Assembly: GCA_900543055.1 (NCBI GenBank)
Contig: UQQI01000001.1
Coordinates: forward strand, 14,350-78,349
Direction: 5' to 3'
Length of the DNA stretch: 64,000 bases
Origin: an uncultured Mollicutes bacterium
GTDB taxonomy: Bacteria > Bacillota_I > Bacilli_A > RF39 > UBA660
The translations under genes and the position numbers were made by a program. The notes beneath the pieces were generated by a model. It was not told where the DNA came from and made no database searches. It saw nothing but the letters and a program-made list of their open reading frames with translations. The first letter of the stretch is position 1; each line of letters starts with the position of its first letter. Shown in pieces: positions 3,936 to 37,243 of this stretch.

Positions 3936-3964
3936 TTTACAATAAAATTTTTAAATGCTATATT
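3936..3964 (+). promoter_or_regulatory. Sigma-A-type promoter, TTTACA-N17-TATATT, driving the WXG100-like operon
   Basis: -35 TTTACA at 3936-3941, 17-nt spacer, -10 TATATT at 3959-3964. Lies about 75 nt upstream of ATG 4041. Confidence 0.5.
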
Positions 3965-4040: not shown

Positions 4041-4331
4041 ATGAACGGAGTAAGTCAAGATAGTGAAGCACTAAGACAAGATGCTAACTATATTAATGAA
4101 ATGGCAGAAACATTTAAAAGTCAATATGAACAATTATTTCAAGAAATGGAAGCAAATTTGAGTGCAGATGCAAATGAAAGTATTGCATGGTGGGGACCTC
4201 AAGCAGGGTTATTTTTAAATAACTTTAATAAGAAAAAAGAGGATTTTAATAATGCATATAAAAATGTAACAAGTATGGCAACAAATCTAGAAGAACAAGC
4301 ACAAGCTTGGGATACTTTTGAAAACGCTTAG
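4041..4331 (+). CDS. WXG100 (ESAT-6-like) family small helical protein, 96 aa
   Basis: RBS AAAGGTGG precedes ATG 4041 (the ORF track start at 3990 is less likely). About 100 aa, predicted helix-turn-helix with a central SIAWWGPQAG motif matching the WXG hairpin motif of T7SS substrates such as S. aureus EsxA (ANWEGQA). Confidence 0.6.
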   Translation: MNGVSQDSEALRQDANYINEMAETFKSQYEQLFQEMEANLSADANESIAWWGPQAGLFLNNFNKKKEDFNNAYKNVTSMATNLEEQAQAWDTFENA

Positions 4332-4348: not shown

Positions 4349-4660
4349 ATGGCAACTAAATCAGGAATGAATTATGATAAGGTAGAAAAACTTATCGAAT
4401 ATTTAGATTCACAAAAGACATCTATTATCAATAATTTAACAGACTTAAGTAATGAAGCTCCATCTAAAATTGCAGCTCATTATTCTGGACAAGCAGCGGA
4501 AACATATAAGAATACATTAACTAATGTTATTACTAAAATAACTGAAACATTAGATACAATGATTGCTGAACTTAAAACAAATACACAACAAAAACAAGAC
4601 GATTATGCTGCACAAGATGCTAAGTTGCAAGACTCAGCAGATGTTGGTATTTCTGCTTAA
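4349..4660 (+). CDS. Second WXG100-like small helical protein (YxG variant), 103 aa
   Basis: RBS GGAGGA precedes ATG 4349, tightly coupled to the upstream gene. Central HYSGQAAE motif sits where a WXG motif would. All-helical, low-complexity composition typical of EsxB/Lap-like partners. Confidence 0.5.
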   Translation: MATKSGMNYDKVEKLIEYLDSQKTSIINNLTDLSNEAPSKIAAHYSGQAAETYKNTLTNVITKITETLDTMIAELKTNTQQKQDDYAAQDAKLQDSADVGISA

Positions 4661-4751: not shown

Positions 4752-5582
4752 ATGAATGTAGCAGAAGATCAAATGCTAGATATAGATGATGTTATTAATG
4801 AGACATGTCCACTAACAGAATATACTTTATACGCAACAGAAATTAGTAAATCAAACATAGGAACTATAAATTCATTAAAAGACATATTTAACGGAGAAGG
4901 AACTTTACCTAGTCAAACAACATCAATATTAGATGAGATAGATCCAACATTAAGTAAAACTAACTCTCAAAGATTCTATAGTGGTCAAACTGCACAAACT
5001 CAAATAACTAATGTTTCAGAAACTTCAGAACATTTACAAAATTTAAAATCATCCGTAGATAGTATTAATGTTGATGCAATATCAGCTACAATTGATTCAT
5101 ATAATGAGCATTTATCTAACTTAAAAAGAGATAGTAGAAAAAAATTGCTAGAAACTGCAGCAGACGCTTTTAATGAAAAAAAAGTTGAATGGGAAGGCTT
5201 TCCAAAAACAAAAACATATAAAACGGATGGGGATATATCCTATGTTGGACCAATATATGATGATGAGTTTAATAATTGTAATGAAACAGATACTGAAATT
5301 TATGAATATGATGTTGTTGAGAGTAGTTCTACTCCTGAAGACATTAAGGATAATAATGGTATGGTTATGTCAACAATTTATCATAATTCAATAACTTATA
5401 AAATTCACAAGTATAAACGAATCAAATACTGGAATTACTTTAAAATAATTAATTCACCAAAGGATCCAACTTTTGAACAAATTGAACAATTATTTAATAA
5501 AGTTGGTGAACCTTTACCATATGATCCTAGTAAAATTAATGGAGATGTAGGAAAAGCTAATGAATGGGGAATTAATTGGTAG
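4752..5582 (+). CDS. 276-aa hypothetical protein whose N-terminal helical region carries a WXG-like YSGQTAQ motif and an LXG-like L-x-D-x-F-x-G-x-G stretch; putative T7SS substrate or effector
   Basis: RBS AAGAGGTGA precedes ATG 4752. LKDIFNGEGT (residues about 42-51) resembles the LXG-domain motif of B. subtilis YeeF (LSDSEFSGKGA). RFYSGQTAQTQ repeats the YSGQ motif of the preceding gene. No signal peptide. Confidence 0.45.
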   Translation: MNVAEDQMLDIDDVINETCPLTEYTLYATEISKSNIGTINSLKDIFNGEGTLPSQTTSILDEIDPTLSKTNSQRFYSGQTAQTQITNVSETSEHLQNLKSSVDSINVDAISATIDSYNEHLSNLKRDSRKKLLETAADAFNEKKVEWEGFPKTKTYKTDGDISYVGPIYDDEFNNCNETDTEIYEYDVVESSSTPEDIKDNNGMVMSTIYHNSITYKIHKYKRIKYWNYFKIINSPKDPTFEQIEQLFNKVGEPLPYDPSKINGDVGKANEWGINW

Positions 5583-5597
5583 GACAGGAGAGAAAGT

Positions 5598-7355
5598 ATG
5601 AGTAATAGAACATATAATGAAGATGAATTAAATAGATTAGTAGAAAATTCATCAAAAATATCTCAAAATTTAGAAGCAATTTCAAACGACACAACATCAT
5701 ATTACGATAAAATCGACTCTAGAATTCTTAGAAAATTTAGTGATACCTTTTCTCAAATAAATAATTATAATGGGAAAATACAAGATGATATAGATAACAT
5801 AGATACATATGGAAATTGGTTAAGTCAAACATTAGACGATTATACAGGAACACGTAATAATGTAGAAGGCATGACTCCGGACTTAAGTGACATCAGTGCA
5901 GATGTTGGAGATACATCATTAGGAGAAGGAGATGCATCATTAAAAGACTTATCTTCAATTTCATCTATTATAGAATCTACAGTTGGTGGATTAGGCTCTG
6001 CAGATAAAGCAGAACAATTTCCTCTTGATCCAGAGGCTTGGAAAAATTTATCTGGATCAGAAAAAGAAGTAATTGTAAAAAAATTAAAAGAACTAGGATT
6101 TACAGATGAAGAAATAAATAATATTAAAGACGGAAAAGTTTCAGTTGATAAAGTTAAGTTAGAAGAACTAGCAAGTCAACTTGAAAAATTATATAAATTA
6201 GATCCAAGCATAAGACAAAAATTAAAAGATTTGTATGGATTTGATATTTTTAATGATGATGGAACAGTAAACAAAGAAAAATTAGCAATCGCTATGCTTA
6301 TGGATGCTAAAAATCCAAACGACCAATATGATTTAAAAAAACTACTAACAAAATTAAATGCTAGTACATCAACAGGTAATAGTAGTAATAAGAGTACAAC
6401 TGGTAATGTAACAAAGGTAGTTGCAAATGATATAGGTGGTTCTAGTCAAACAACTAGTACAATAGCAGGAGCAGCTGCAGGACTTGGAGCAACAGTTGCT
6501 GCAGTTGGAGGAACTACTTCGAAAGCTACAGGATTAGCAGCTAGTGCAGAAGAAGAGGCACTTGCAGGAGATAAATCATCAGACTCATCAAATGCTTCTA
6601 GTAAAAATTCAAGTCTTTTGGACGGATTAAAATCAGAAATGAATCATGTAATAAACAGTATAAAACCATCAGGAAACATTTCTACAAAACAAGGAAATGC
6701 CGCTATTATTGCAGGAGCAGGTCTTGGAACAGTATCACTAGCAGGTGGAGGAATAATGGCTGGTAAGAAAATTATGATGTTAGTATTCAAACCAGAACAT
6801 TTTACAAATTTATCTGAAGTCATAAAAGATACACTTTTAAATACTTTTAAAGCATTAAAATTTACGGAAGAAGAATTAGATTTATTTATGACATCAAATT
6901 TGAAGATAAAAGCATCACTAATTGATGATATAATTACAGCAATTAAGAAAGCTAGTGAATTAGATCCTGAATTAAATTCAAAAATAAAGCAAGTTTATAA
7001 TTTTAGTGTGTTTACAGAAAGTAATAAAATTAGTAAATATTTAATATTAATGATAATGTTAATTGATGGAAAGAAAATTGGTGACCAATATAATATCTAT
7101 GATATATTAAATCCAATATTAGCAGAAACTGATTATGTAAATTACACATATCAAGGTGTATCTTTACAAGATATTGTAGTAAAGGAAAAAGAAGAAAAGA
7201 AAGAATCAGATAAACAACAAAAAGAAGAAGCAAAACAACCAGAAATAAATGCTAATAAAGAAGAAATTTTAGATGAAAACGAAGATAGTAAAACATCAAC
7301 TACAAGTACATCTTCAGTAGAATCATGGCTAAAAGAAATGGGAATTGACTCATAA
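5598..7355 (+). CDS. 585-aa hypothetical protein: helical N-domain, two homologous ~100-aa repeat domains flanking a Gly/Ala/Ser/Thr-rich glycine-zipper region, and a Lys/Glu-rich tail
   Basis: RBS GGAGAGAAAG precedes ATG 5598. Internal repeats at residues about 150-255 and 400-510 share LDP…K.K..Y.F..F…L.I.ML.D.K…DQY. Glycine-zipper (GxxxG) runs IAGAAAGLGATVAAVGG and AAIIAGAGLGTVSLAGGGIMAG lie between them. The C-terminal tail is KEKEEKKESDKQQKEEAK. Confidence 0.6.
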   Translation: MSNRTYNEDELNRLVENSSKISQNLEAISNDTTSYYDKIDSRILRKFSDTFSQINNYNGKIQDDIDNIDTYGNWLSQTLDDYTGTRNNVEGMTPDLSDISADVGDTSLGEGDASLKDLSSISSIIESTVGGLGSADKAEQFPLDPEAWKNLSGSEKEVIVKKLKELGFTDEEINNIKDGKVSVDKVKLEELASQLEKLYKLDPSIRQKLKDLYGFDIFNDDGTVNKEKLAIAMLMDAKNPNDQYDLKKLLTKLNASTSTGNSSNKSTTGNVTKVVANDIGGSSQTTSTIAGAAAGLGATVAAVGGTTSKATGLAASAEEEALAGDKSSDSSNASSKNSSLLDGLKSEMNHVINSIKPSGNISTKQGNAAIIAGAGLGTVSLAGGGIMAGKKIMMLVFKPEHFTNLSEVIKDTLLNTFKALKFTEEELDLFMTSNLKIKASLIDDIITAIKKASELDPELNSKIKQVYNFSVFTESNKISKYLILMIMLIDGKKIGDQYNIYDILNPILAETDYVNYTYQGVSLQDIVVKEKEEKKESDKQQKEEAKQPEINANKEEILDENEDSKTSTTSTSSVESWLKEMGIDS

Positions 7356-9630: not shown

Positions 9631-10729
9631 ATGGAACTAAAAGAACAAAGAAAATCACTTGAAATAAATTTAGAAACAATAACTAACTTATGGAGGTCAC
9701 TTTGACATCGATACAAAAATAAAGAAAATAGAAGAACTTCAAAAACAGACAGAAAACCTTAATTTTTGGAATGACCGCGAAAATGCTGAAAAAGTACTAA
9801 GAGAATTAAATGATTTAAAAGATACAGTCAATAAAGTATCATCTATAAAAGAAGATATAAATAGTAACTTAGAAGTAATAAATCTACTTGAATTAGAAGA
9901 AGATAATGACTTATATAATGAAGTTATATTAAATTCAGAAAAAATAAATAAAGAAACAGAAGAATTAAATAAATTATTACTTTTAAGTGGGCCATATGAT
10001 AAAAATGATTGTATTTTAGAAATACATCCTGGAGCTGGTGGTACAGAGTCATGCGATTGGGCTAATATGCTATATAGAATGTATACAAGATACTGTGAAA
10101 ATCATAATTACAAAATAACAATACTTGATTACCAAGCAGGTGATGAAGCGGGGATAAAAAGTGTATCTCTATTAATAAAAGGTATAAATGCTTATGGTTA
10201 TTTAAAAAATGAAAAAGGGGTTCACAGACTTGTAAGATTATCACCTTTTGACTCTAACAATAGAAGACATACATCATTTGCATCAGTAGAAGTTACACCA
10301 GATATTGATAAAGATGTTGATGTAGAAATAGATGATAAAGATTTAAAAATTGATGTATATCGTTCAACAGGAGCAGGAGGGCAAGGAGTAAATACAACAG
10401 ACTCAGCAGTAAGAATTACACATTTACCAACAAAGATTGTAGTTACATGTCAAAATGAACGAAGCCAAATTCAAAATAAAGAACAAGCAATGAGAGTGTT
10501 AAAAAATAAGTTATTGTTATTAAAAATGGAAGAGCAAGAACAAGAATTAAATAAAATTAAGGGAGAACAAATGAATATAAACTTTGGCTCTCAAATAAGA
10601 AGTTACGTAATGCATCCATATTCAATGGTAAAGGATCACAGAACAAATAAAGAAACAAGCAATGTTTCAAAAGTACTAGATGGAGATATAGACGAATTTA
10701 TAGAAGAAAATTTAAAAAAGGGGCTATAA
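9631..10729 (+). CDS. prfB: Peptide chain release factor 2, with a programmed +1 ribosomal frameshift at CTT TGA C (TGA at 9703-9705)
   Basis: ORF0 (ATG 9631, MELKEQRKSLEINLETITNLWRSL) ends at an in-frame TGA that is preceded by the internal SD-like GGAGG and the canonical CUU UGA C slippery site. The +1 frame continues (DIDTKIKKIEELQ…) into the RF2 C-terminal ORF with the GGQ motif (RSTGAGGQGVNTTDSAVRITHLPT). Confidence 0.9.
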
Positions 10730-20663: not shown

Positions 20664-22082
20664 TTATTTAAAGAACACAGTATTATAATCAATAAATCTA
20701 TTCTTACTATACTCATAATCGATTTTTTTATCTTTTAAATTATAAGCTTCAAGTAGTTTATTTTTTAATAATTCTTCATTACCTTCGTTAAAATATTCAA
20801 GCGGAATAACAATACCATTTTCCTTATCAACAACATTCAATTCATGAATTGCTGGAATATCTGTAGTAATAATCTTAGTTTTAGAACATAATGCTTCAGT
20901 TAAAGAATAAGAAAGAGCTTCCGTTCTACTAAATTGAACTAAATAATCACTATCAGATATATAATCAATTACATTAGTAACACAATTTCTAAATATAAGA
21001 CCACCTTGGTTTGCTTCAACAATATCAGTAAATACACTCCATGTATATGGAATTTTTTCTTTATCTAAAATGCTTGCTGCTTTCTTGATTCTATCCATTC
21101 CTTTTTCTGGAGCATTTCTAATTGCAGAAATTAGTCTCATATGAGGTTTAATTTTTTTCTTATCATAAGTAAATGGATTGTATATATATTCAATATTATT
21201 TGTTGGAAAATAACCATAAGCAGTATCTCTAGCAATTTTAGAAACTGCAATATACCTATCATATATATCATCAACAAACCTAGCAGATGCCTCGTAGTCA
21301 GCCATATTGCCATGAATAAAAATACAAGACTCTTTTAAAGTATAAATATTAATAGGGTAAAAATAAGTTGAATATGTAGTTACCAAACTATCACAAATAT
21401 AGTCAATATCTTCATCTAGTTTTACACAACTAAAATATTCTTCAAATCTCTTCTTAGTAACTTCATTAATTTCTGTATATATAATTGTTATTGGATACTC
21501 AGAAAAAGCCTTTCCAATTTCGTTTAACCAAGTTACATAACCGTTAAACATTCCATTACAAAAAGCACCAACATAAACAATATTTTTATAGTAAACACTT
21601 TGTCTTCTATTTACCATATTTAAGATATTATAAAATTCCCCATCTTTATTATGAAAATATAAAACATTAGAAATATTAGTACGATTTACAAAAATATCAT
21701 TAAATCCAGTAAAATTATTTCTTATTAATTCAATTAATTTATTCTTATTAAAAACAAAATTCCATATATATGAATTTTTCTTTGGAACTTTACTATTTAA
21801 ATCATATTCATCAGTCCTAACTTTAAGTTCACGAACGTAATCATAATTAATTCTATAATTTATAAAACAAGAATCAAATTCATTAAATTTAATTTTATCT
21901 AAAATTCTACTGAAATAATCATCTGAAATATTATCTTCGCTATCAACAAAAGATATATAACTACCACGTGCATTAAAGATATCTTCCAATTTATTAAATC
22001 GTATTATTTCGACTTCATCACGGATATCTTTAATAAATAAATCTTCATTACCTAAAATAAAAGTTGTTAAAATCTTATTCAA
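20664..22082 (-). CDS. Glycosyltransferase (472 aa): GT-B/GT4-like C-terminal domain with an EX7E motif and an N-terminal GT-A-like fragment
   Basis: C-terminal FSRTEALSYSLTEAL (E-x7-E, as in GT4). N-terminal FVDSEDNISDDYF resembles the GT2 DxD region. Convergent with the radical SAM gene. Confidence 0.55.
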   Translation of the reverse strand: MNKILTTFILGNEDLFIKDIRDEVEIIRFNKLEDIFNARGSYISFVDSEDNISDDYFSRILDKIKFNEFDSCFINYRINYDYVRELKVRTDEYDLNSKVPKKNSYIWNFVFNKNKLIELIRNNFTGFNDIFVNRTNISNVLYFHNKDGEFYNILNMVNRRQSVYYKNIVYVGAFCNGMFNGYVTWLNEIGKAFSEYPITIIYTEINEVTKKRFEEYFSCVKLDEDIDYICDSLVTTYSTYFYPINIYTLKESCIFIHGNMADYEASARFVDDIYDRYIAVSKIARDTAYGYFPTNNIEYIYNPFTYDKKKIKPHMRLISAIRNAPEKGMDRIKKAASILDKEKIPYTWSVFTDIVEANQGGLIFRNCVTNVIDYISDSDYLVQFSRTEALSYSLTEALCSKTKIITTDIPAIHELNVVDKENGIVIPLEYFNEGNEELLKNKLLEAYNLKDKKIDYEYSKNRFIDYNTVFFK

Positions 22083-36466: not shown

Positions 36467-37243
36467 ATGAATAAAATAAAATTATTAATTATTGATGATA
36501 ATAAAAATTTAGTAGATATGATAAGAGAGTACTTTAAAGATAATAAGAAAATATCAGTTAATTACGTAGCTGAAGATGGAAAGTATGGAATAGATATTAT
36601 TGATAAACATTCGGATAATATAGATATAATCTTACTAGATTTAGTAATGCCAAGAGTAGATGGGGTTGAAGTTTTAGAATATCTTAAGAAAAATAATATA
36701 AATAAAAAAATTATTGTTCTTACATCTTATAATACACAAGAAATGATTAGAAAAGTATCTGAACTTGGTGCTTGTTACTACATATTGAAACCATTTGAAT
36801 TAAGTCATCTAAAAGCAAAAATAGAAAGTGTGTATGCTAGTCACAGTAATCCAAATGAAAGTGTTGACCTGTTTCAAAACAATTTACAAATCTCAATTTC
36901 AAAAACACTTCATGAACTTGGAGTTCCATCACATGTTAAAGGATATCAATATATTAGAGAAGGAATAACACTAGTATTTAAAAATCCAGAATATATAGGT
37001 GGAATAACAAAAGAATTATATCCAGCAATTGCAAAAACATTTGATTCAACTGCATCTCGTGTAGAAAGAGCAATTAGACATGCAATTGACATTAGTTGGA
37101 CAAGAGCAAATTGGGATTATATGGTAGAATTATTTGGATACACAATAGACATAGAAGGTGCAAAACCGACAAATTCAGAGTTTATAGTAACAATAGCAGA
37201 CAAACTAAGATTAGAATATAACACTCCAATAAGACAATCATAA
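36467..37243 (+). CDS. spo0A: Stage 0 sporulation protein A (response regulator with a Spo0A-C DNA-binding domain)
   Basis: Receiver domain (LIIDDN…LLDLVMP) plus the characteristic Spo0A C-terminal domain (ISKTLHELGVPSHVKGYQYIREGI…TASRVERAIRHAI). Confidence 0.85.
   Translation: MNKIKLLIIDDNKNLVDMIREYFKDNKKISVNYVAEDGKYGIDIIDKHSDNIDIILLDLVMPRVDGVEVLEYLKKNNINKKIIVLTSYNTQEMIRKVSELGACYYILKPFELSHLKAKIESVYASHSNPNESVDLFQNNLQISISKTLHELGVPSHVKGYQYIREGITLVFKNPEYIGGITKELYPAIAKTFDSTASRVERAIRHAIDISWTRANWDYMVELFGYTIDIEGAKPTNSEFIVTIADKLRLEYNTPIRQS

Follow-up and report, generated by a model that had tools for sequence, protein, structure and literature searches.

A glycine-zipper protein of an undescribed family, a candidate type VIIb secretion substrate of uncultured gut Bacilli

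We describe a 585-residue protein encoded by a contig of an uncultured Mollicutes bacterium (GenBank assembly GCA_900543055.1, contig UQQI01000001.1, positions 14,350 to 78,349). This stretch of 64,000 nucleotides is referred to below as the window; coordinates are those of the window unless another locus is named. The target gene occupies 5598-7355 (+), and the features of its protein and of its cassette all lie on the + strand. Sequence comparison places the protein in a small family not described before, and the explanation that we favour, with slightly better than even confidence, is that it is a membrane-inserting protein targeted to a type VIIb secretion system (T7SSb). This proposal draws on a predicted N-terminal hairpin that resembles WXG100 and LXG proteins, on two glycine-zipper segments and on the small WXG100-like genes that precede the target. 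The action of the protein can be likened, by analogy, to that of the glycine-zipper LXG effectors, from which it departs in several of the membership features tested.

Repeats, zippers and family

The open reading frame is intact, starts with ATG and comprises 585 codons. The internal duplication of the protein is a true repeat: a gapless alignment of residues 132-268 to 386-522 (137 positions, 25% identity, 51% positives, 64.7 bits) has a Smith-Waterman score of 175, compared with 33.3 +/- 5.9 in 2000 shuffles (z = 24, shuffle maximum 74). A first-pass annotation, made from the letters of the DNA, had claimed a duplicated domain of ~100 aa, and the motifs that it quoted fall within this alignment. 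Its description of small-residue runs with GxxxG spacing between the repeats is likewise borne out, at aa 285-308 and 366-390, in canonical (G/A/S)xxxGxxx(G/S/T) registers (G291-G295-T299; A369-G373-G377, plus G385-G389), and composition agrees with the acidic Ser/Asp linker (aa 96-131: S9, D5, G5) and the KE-rich tail (aa 521-585: E13, K10) that it had noted.

From the N-terminus, the target begins with a helical hairpin (aa 1-95, 5598..5882), in which D40, R42 and W74 are invariant. It is followed by a Ser/Asp-rich linker (aa 96-139, 5883..6014), delimited by composition, low predicted local distance difference test (pLDDT) values and alignment, which ends in a degenerate Gly-rich SIIESTVGGLGSA. 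The first copy of the repeat, hereafter the R module (~107 aa; R1, aa 140-258, 6015..6371, placed by the repeat alignment), consists largely of helices and has a small beta-hairpin at YGFDIFNDDGTV. The first Gly/Ala-rich zipper segment, TTSTIAGAAAGLGATVAAVGGTTS (aa 285-308, 6450..6521), is connected by a Ser/Ala/Glu-rich loop whose length differs among orthologs (aa 309-365, 6522..6692) to the second one, GNAAIIAGAGLGTVSLAGGGIMAGK (aa 366-390, 6693..6767), which is placed by the alignment of zipper and following R module described below. R2, the second R module with a short C-terminal extension (aa 391-530, 6768..7187), precedes a Glu/Lys-rich tail that includes the stop codon (aa 531-585, 7188..7355), recognised by composition and by its final motif. 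AlphaFold2 (AF2), run with an 88-sequence alignment, gave confident models of the hairpin (residues 8-90, pLDDT ~95), of R1 (140-258, ~97) and of R2 (390-530, ~96); aa 96-131 (Ser/Asp-rich) and 259-284 (with Ser/Thr-rich stretches) are of low complexity and poorly predicted. An earlier single-sequence AF2 model had a predicted template modelling score of 0.27, and its Foldseek matches were noise. There is no signal peptide, the N-terminus being polar (MSNRTYNEDE...) and folding as the hairpin. An EF-hand/dockerin-like Ca-binding loop was considered in 'FDIFNDDGTVNKEKL' and rejected on inspection, ligand positions 1 and 12 not being acidic.

When 1.84 billion cluster representatives were searched exhaustively with phmmer, 144 related clusters were returned in all, from metagenome-assembled genomes (MAGs) of uncultured low-GC gut or rumen Bacilli/"Tenericutes". 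The best 120 word-indexed matches are proteins 95-99% identical to the target from gut metagenomes, two of them being named 'Bacilli bacterium' and 'Mollicutes bacterium' MAG proteins. A genome scan for relatives, made with the R-domain alignment, found ten loci, every one in an uncultured MAG (labelled Bacilli, Tenericutes, Mycoplasma, Bacillales or Erysipelotrichaceae). The target has no match in Pfam, NCBIfam, PADLOC, PHROGs or the PDB sequences, the R module has no relative in Pfam, NCBIfam, the PDB sequences or, by Foldseek, the PDB folds, and the 88 relatives scanned share no Pfam domain consistently, all of which accords with the first-pass statement that no known family could be recognised. 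Six members match CoaE (PF01121, dephospho-CoA kinase), a candidate that was set aside: these are summed weak repeat matches at profile positions ~14-86 with no single stretch passing, and the query itself has no CoaE match. Fusello_VP2 and other Pfam matches in multi-repeat relatives are of the same nature, that is, weak tandem-repeat matches added up, none of which passes singly.

A hidden Markov model of the R module (107 positions) finds one to six copies in 134 of the 144 sequences, and partial copies (positions 40-107) often come after a full one; the consensus reads 'tpedW..L..e.Q.aI..kLKevGfsdeEIe.i..G...........L......P.lr.el..lYGFDiFdeDG.Vdk..L.la.iIDGKN..D.Y'. With Z for the zipper, the arrangements counted in the 107 full-length clusters include ZR (26), RrZ (13), RrZR (10) and ZRrZ (9). 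The repeat-zipper-repeat pseudo-symmetry that the first-pass annotation had proposed for the target does not extend to the family, RZZR being found in only three of these clusters. The conserved unit of the family is instead a Gly-zipper segment directly followed by one R module (Z-R). In one locus (L005, 15-7329), three R-domain paralogs of 420, 494 and 747 aa lie in tandem with a g3-like gene (see below) in between, which is a local amplification of the family.

The two zipper segments are the most hydrophobic stretches of the target; both are uncharged, and they resemble each other in composition only (z = 1). An alignment of 88 Z-R units reveals fixed Gly columns with GxxxG spacing (consensus 'AG.IAAAGLAAGGAAAGGG..xGKK', in its short form AGIIAAAGLAAGGAAAGGG..GKK), a charge-free span of 17-31 residues before R, conserved basic residues (Lys-Lys) right after the zipper, and an end of the zipper ~8 residues ahead of the 'FTPEDW' start of the R copy. 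Ahead of R1-type copies, relatives have a weaker '[IV]GGLGS' segment; SIIESTVGGLGSA (aa 123-135) is what the query retains of it. Both zippers are kept in the closest orthologs, P0121 and P0122, where the length of the loop between them changes, and the zippers together with the whole core are nearly invariant within the species. Since the Gly segments are conserved in columns, spacing and position, over the 88 units as in the orthologs and within the species, they are not the disordered linker of variable length that the first-pass annotation had itself named as the finding to set against its proposal.

The predicted apparent free energy of membrane insertion (dGapp) is positive in all 88 zipper units and amounts to about +4.1 and about +2.9 kcal/mol for the first and second segments of the query, compared with -0.7 to -3.2 kcal/mol for real transmembrane helices in the same window. 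On these predictions the zippers would be too polar for ordinary insertion by the translocon or for use as the usual transmembrane anchors. Marginal hydrophobicity, lack of charge and small residues would fit soluble travel followed by insertion through oligomerisation, rather than co-translational anchoring; the conserved Gly columns, the lack of charge and the positive dGapp together form the profile expected of a segment that inserts post-translationally. A further conserved element is the motif [KD][ED]WLxx[IL]G[IL][DE], found at the extreme C-terminus of about one third of the family, across architectures (WLKEMGIDS in the query, aa 577-585, 7326-7352). Since 'WLYGLGIGL' runs into a terminal Gly-zipper in other members, the motif could be either what is left of a zipper or a signal in its own right.

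The N-terminal hairpin, the cassette and EssC

The N-terminal 95 residues of the target are modelled as a hairpin of WXG100/LXG-like type. The best Foldseek matches of the predicted hairpin are almost exclusively WXG100 proteins. The profile of the family N-terminus has a sole PDB match below E = 0.01, the TelA LXG domain (8gmh_B, residues 111-185), which is marginal (E = 0.002, 21 bits) and in which the invariant Trp of the family is aligned. The hairpin stands at residue 1 in 63 of the 107 full-length members, the rest having different but similar-looking helical N-termini.

The target is the fourth and last gene of a cassette. The first gene, g1 (4041..4331, 96 aa; ribosome-binding site, ortholog alignment), encodes a divergent WXG100-like protein with an invariant AW[WFY]GP turn and a conserved QAxAWxxFE at the C-terminus; in its ortholog alignment W50 and G52 are invariant. 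The second, g2 (4349..4660, 103 aa), is likewise WXG100-like, with a YSG[EQ]AAE turn (Y45 and G47), as judged from a sub-cutoff match and from its ortholog profile, whose best PDB match is S. aureus EsxA (E = 3e-4). In the window itself both genes fall below the curated cutoffs (g2, 24.6 vs 27.3 bits for Pfam WXG100 and 25.7 vs 44.85 for TIGR03930; g1, 14.3 bits), and 13 of 20 g1/g2 orthologs match Pfam WXG100 (PF06013) at E <= 0.01. These comparisons suggest that g1 and g2 encode divergent WXG100 proteins. The third gene, g3 (4752..5582), encodes a 276-aa accessory protein with an ATNSxRFYSG motif and has orthologs in most cassettes; its N-terminal ~140 aa are conserved and its C-terminal part is variable. 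It has no match in Pfam, NCBIfam, PADLOC or PHROGs. Its N-terminal region is probably a WXG-like hairpin: hhalign places FYSG..A of g3 in register with YSG.AA of g2 (57% probability, E = 1e-4), and profile-profile comparisons among g1, g2, g3 and the target N-terminus are weak (2.7-68% probability). A sigma-70-like promoter candidate (3936..3964, +; TTTACA, 17-nt spacer, TG-extended TATATT), which is a consensus match only (10 of 12 positions), lies in the 121-bp gap between a gltD-like gene and g1.

The same cassette, that is, two genes of ~100 aa, an optional gene of 175-376 aa and the R-protein, recurs in nearly all loci from other species. The arrangement is inverted around P0252 (757 aa), a distant ZR-class member in L021 (10001-13882): no small genes precede it, and four (102, 113, 95 and 170 aa) lie downstream. 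The position of the cassette is constant in several species, between DHOD-B-like/GltD-like genes and tilS-like/prfB/yitT/ftsEX, a constant housekeeping position that argues for vertical inheritance. Within the species the target is 95-99% identical throughout, with no swapping of C-termini. Across syntenic loci, the cassette proteins are 25-42% identical, compared with 51-90% (most 65-90%) for flanking housekeeping proteins; in a within-species comparison the values are 86% for g3 and 92% for the R-protein vs 94-99% for the neighbours. Evolution much faster than that of the neighbours is typical of secreted or exposed proteins.

The link to secretion machinery is provided by L019, where EssC (1518 aa, FHA and FtsK/SpoIIIE; 963 bits vs a cutoff of 778 for the TIGR03928 equivalog) lies 3.5 kb downstream of the cassette. 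The order in this locus is cassette, nusB, xseA, a second pair of small genes (one above the WXG100 cutoff), EssC and an 83-aa gene. EssC of L024 likewise passes the TIGR03928 cutoff, and further EssC loci were retrieved from related MAGs (L027/L028 and L029/L030). These loci are minimal (L019, 13110-19188; L024, 8271-14837; L027, 8795-14835; L029, 10001-14596): each has EssC, usually preceded by two or three small genes and followed by an 83-aa gene, and neither EssB nor EsaA nor EssA is recognisable in the EssC loci of this lineage. The housekeeping genes among which they sit vary from species to species. The place immediately upstream of uvrA, which EssC occupies in L029, is taken in the window by a minus-strand glycosyltransferase (20664-22082) of low GC and inverted GC skew. 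The three most populous EssC clusters (P0292, P0285 and P0354), considered as candidates for the species of the window, were assigned to other species on the basis of PGK (52%), Spo0A (61%) and UvrA (67%) identity, GC content and tetranucleotide signature.

Export, membrane insertion and competing explanations

We propose that the cassette provides a type VIIb secretion system with a set of substrates, namely g1, g2, g3 and the R-protein. The hairpin of ~95 residues of the R-protein would form, with g1 and g2 and probably with the hairpin part of g3, a helical-bundle targeting complex, which is proposed because of the fold, the weak sequence similarity and the gene order. Such a complex would resemble the LXG-Lap-Lap complexes exported by EssC, of which TelA-LXG/LapA3/LapA4 is an example (PDB 8GMH; PMC10801868). 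Within this complex, in the cytoplasm, the zippers would be kept soluble, possibly under the shield of g3. Once exported, they would enter a membrane by oligomerisation along their small-residue faces, in the manner of glycine-zipper pore-formers. The R modules, fused within ~8 residues of the zipper, could then lie at the surface of the membrane and serve in oligomerisation or gating. The target membrane may be that of a competitor, of a host cell or of the producer itself.

Two small helical proteins followed by a large substrate, and an elongated predicted helical hairpin, are features that the cassette shares with the 8GMH complex, whose TelA LXG chain is the top PDB sequence match of the family N-terminal profile, conserved Trp included; the cassette differs from it in that this similarity is marginal and that g1/g2 match WXG100 and not DUF3130, DUF3958, DUF5344 or DUF5082. 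As in the WXG100 proteins EsxA/EsxB (PF06013), g1 and g2 have ~100 residues and a helix-turn-helix inferred from sequence, with the W-x-G turn in g1, but they are sub-cutoff, and the hairpin of the target merely leads a multidomain protein of 585 aa. The TelE operon consists of two Lap proteins, a chaperone and then the glycine-zipper effector (bioRxiv 10.64898/2026.03.12.711312; PMC10434224), and a GxxxGxxxG-type segment is the membrane-active element in TelE and EsxX (PMC10434224, PMC12744356, bioRxiv 10.64898/2026.03.12.711312). The target has in common with the zipper LXG effectors (S. gallolyticus TelE; S. aureus EsxX, TspA; S. suis LXG-T2) an N-terminal helical targeting domain, and with those of TelE/EsxX type a conserved small-residue GxxxGxxxG-type motif and, upstream, two small alpha-helical WXG100-like genes with a third accessory gene. 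It differs from them in that its hairpin is about half the length of LXG (~200 residues), that g3 is not DUF4176 and that no DUF5085-type, polytopic or other conserved immunity gene lies downstream. The zipper, which is C-terminal in TelE, is internal in this family, occurs in one to three copies and is followed by the R module, and the cassette locus is fixed and vertically inherited rather than polymorphic. The likeness to TelE drawn by the first-pass annotation is independently supported by features on which it had not drawn, namely the hairpin, the two upstream WXG100-like genes and, in a relative, the EssC gene beside the cassette, and fails for immunity, for the fixed locus and for the internal zipper with its folded domain. 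Outside T7SS, the glycine-zipper pore-formers VacA, CdzC/D and Tse4 (PMC10434224) offer a parallel in their marginally hydrophobic (G/A/S)xxxGxxx(G/S/T) helices, which in those toxins drive the formation of oligomeric channels; the target shows no sequence or domain kinship with them, its proposed delivery route is another, and it has no Pfam Gly-zipper match.

Several observations weigh against the substrate hypothesis. Pfam LXG (PF04740) has no match in the target at E <= 1 and none in 88 members at E <= 0.001. No T7SS core gene is found in the window or, in the other long loci that were inspected, at less than 10 kb from the cassette, and the four EssC loci retrieved all come from other species than that of the window. 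In the AF2 model the zipper region lacks a confident structure (pLDDT ~30), and basic residues placed immediately behind the zipper would also be compatible with a resident membrane protein. Unlike polymorphic toxins, the target gene exists in a single copy, occupies a constant position among housekeeping genes and shows uniform conservation within the species. No immunity-like gene is conserved after the R-protein in the loci examined, the genes there being of housekeeping types that vary by species (cysteine desulfurase, HD-domain protein and others). Both the missing immunity gene and the constant position of the locus speak against a polymorphic antibacterial toxin of the classical kind. 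When they are taken together with the EssC loci devoid of recognisable EssB, EsaA and EssA, and with the constancy of the locus in every cassette-bearing species, a pore in a host membrane becomes possible, as does a conduit or anchor in the producer's own membrane, by which a minimal T7SS would be completed. That the Z-R unit is a new kind of T7SS-delivered, channel-forming module, and not an antibacterial toxin, is nevertheless a rather unlikely suggestion at present.

The alternative that survives best, which we regard as unlikely and yet worth serious attention, is that the target is a resident membrane protein of the producer, namely a hairpin- or single-pass-anchored envelope or T7SS-accessory component and not an exported toxin. 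The R modules would then lie on the cytoplasmic side, the Lys-Lys after the zipper marking the inside, and the WXG-like hairpin would dock small WXG100 proteins or the secretion ATPase. Several features speak for this explanation: a single-copy, vertically inherited housekeeping locus, uniform conservation within the species, no immunity gene, and conserved basic residues with a folded domain within ~8 residues of the zipper. The minimal EssC loci could also have membrane components that go unrecognised. It is opposed by the insertion free energies, positive in 88 of 88 zipper units, unlike those of the transmembrane helices of the window, and by the occurrence of one, two or three zippers with R on either side, which leaves no consistent structural topology. 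The cassette moreover evolves far faster than its neighbours, and an N-terminal hairpin with two WXG100-like partners is a hallmark of substrates, not of machinery (PMC10801868).

It is quite improbable, in our estimation, that the protein is soluble and unrelated to T7SS, with Gly/Ala runs that are flexible interdomain linkers and a likeness to WXG100/LXG that reflects a generic two-helix hairpin. The low-confidence coil that AF2 draws for the zipper region, the positive insertion energies, the WXG100 and LXG scores of the window proteins, all below curated cutoffs, and the lack of EssC in the window are what such a protein would show. Linkers, however, do not hold fixed Gly columns, zero charge over 17-31 residues and a distance of ~8 residues in 88 divergent units. 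A generic hairpin is at odds with the invariant W-x-G at the turn of g1, with the independent WXG100 matches of 13 of 20 small-gene orthologs, and with the EssC gene and second WXG100 pair that adjoin the cassette in L019. Finally, the target might be a surface protein in which a disordered linker connects two copies of some known wall- or surface-anchoring domain, as the low-complexity, poorly predicted aa 96-131 and 259-284 might suggest. This is very hard to credit when the R module has no match among known anchoring domains or other families, no signal peptide is present and the sequence of the Gly segments is conserved as well as their position.

Genomic surroundings and significance

The window has ~28% G+C and carries otherwise housekeeping genes (uvrA/B, ftsEX-pcsB, prfB, spo0A and others). 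Relative to the conspecific locus L001 (3880-5967), it is without 2.1 kb at 1544-1569, a loss that takes most of a 752-aa minus-strand gene; this strain-variable gene lies ~2.5 kb upstream of the cassette, and its product, which is without a Pfam match, has a Gly-rich hydrophobic segment of its own. The prfB gene (release factor 2, 9700-10729) contains a canonical programmed +1 frameshift site, CTTTGAC, at 9700-9706, from which the frame reads continuously into the 220-aa open reading frame listed at 10067-10729. A Spo0A homolog at 36467-37243 is 61% identical to that of L024, and SpoIVA is present in the related L029; MAGs of this lineage are labelled Mollicutes or Tenericutes. No relevant publication on T7SS came up in literature searches for RF39, Erysipelotrichia or gut MAG lineages.

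Knowledge of T7SSb biology rests on few cultured Bacillota, and effectors have been catalogued mostly through the LXG Pfam domain, by which the R-protein family would be missed. What is new here is a domain fold that could not be placed, an unusual fusion of zipper and domain, and the absence of an immunity gene, in prevalent uncultured gut bacteria. The present analysis suggests that abundant uncultured gut Bacilli with small genomes keep an immunity-less set of T7SS substrates, in which a short LXG/WXG-like leader is combined with a conserved glycine zipper and a domain without known relative. If confirmed, this would add to the cargo and targeting signals known for T7SS, and the Z-R unit of ~130 residues, with G-to-V mutants, would offer a tractable case of how marginally hydrophobic zippers are first soluble and then inserted. 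It would also point to a possible host- or self-directed function of T7SS in prevalent commensals of the human gut.

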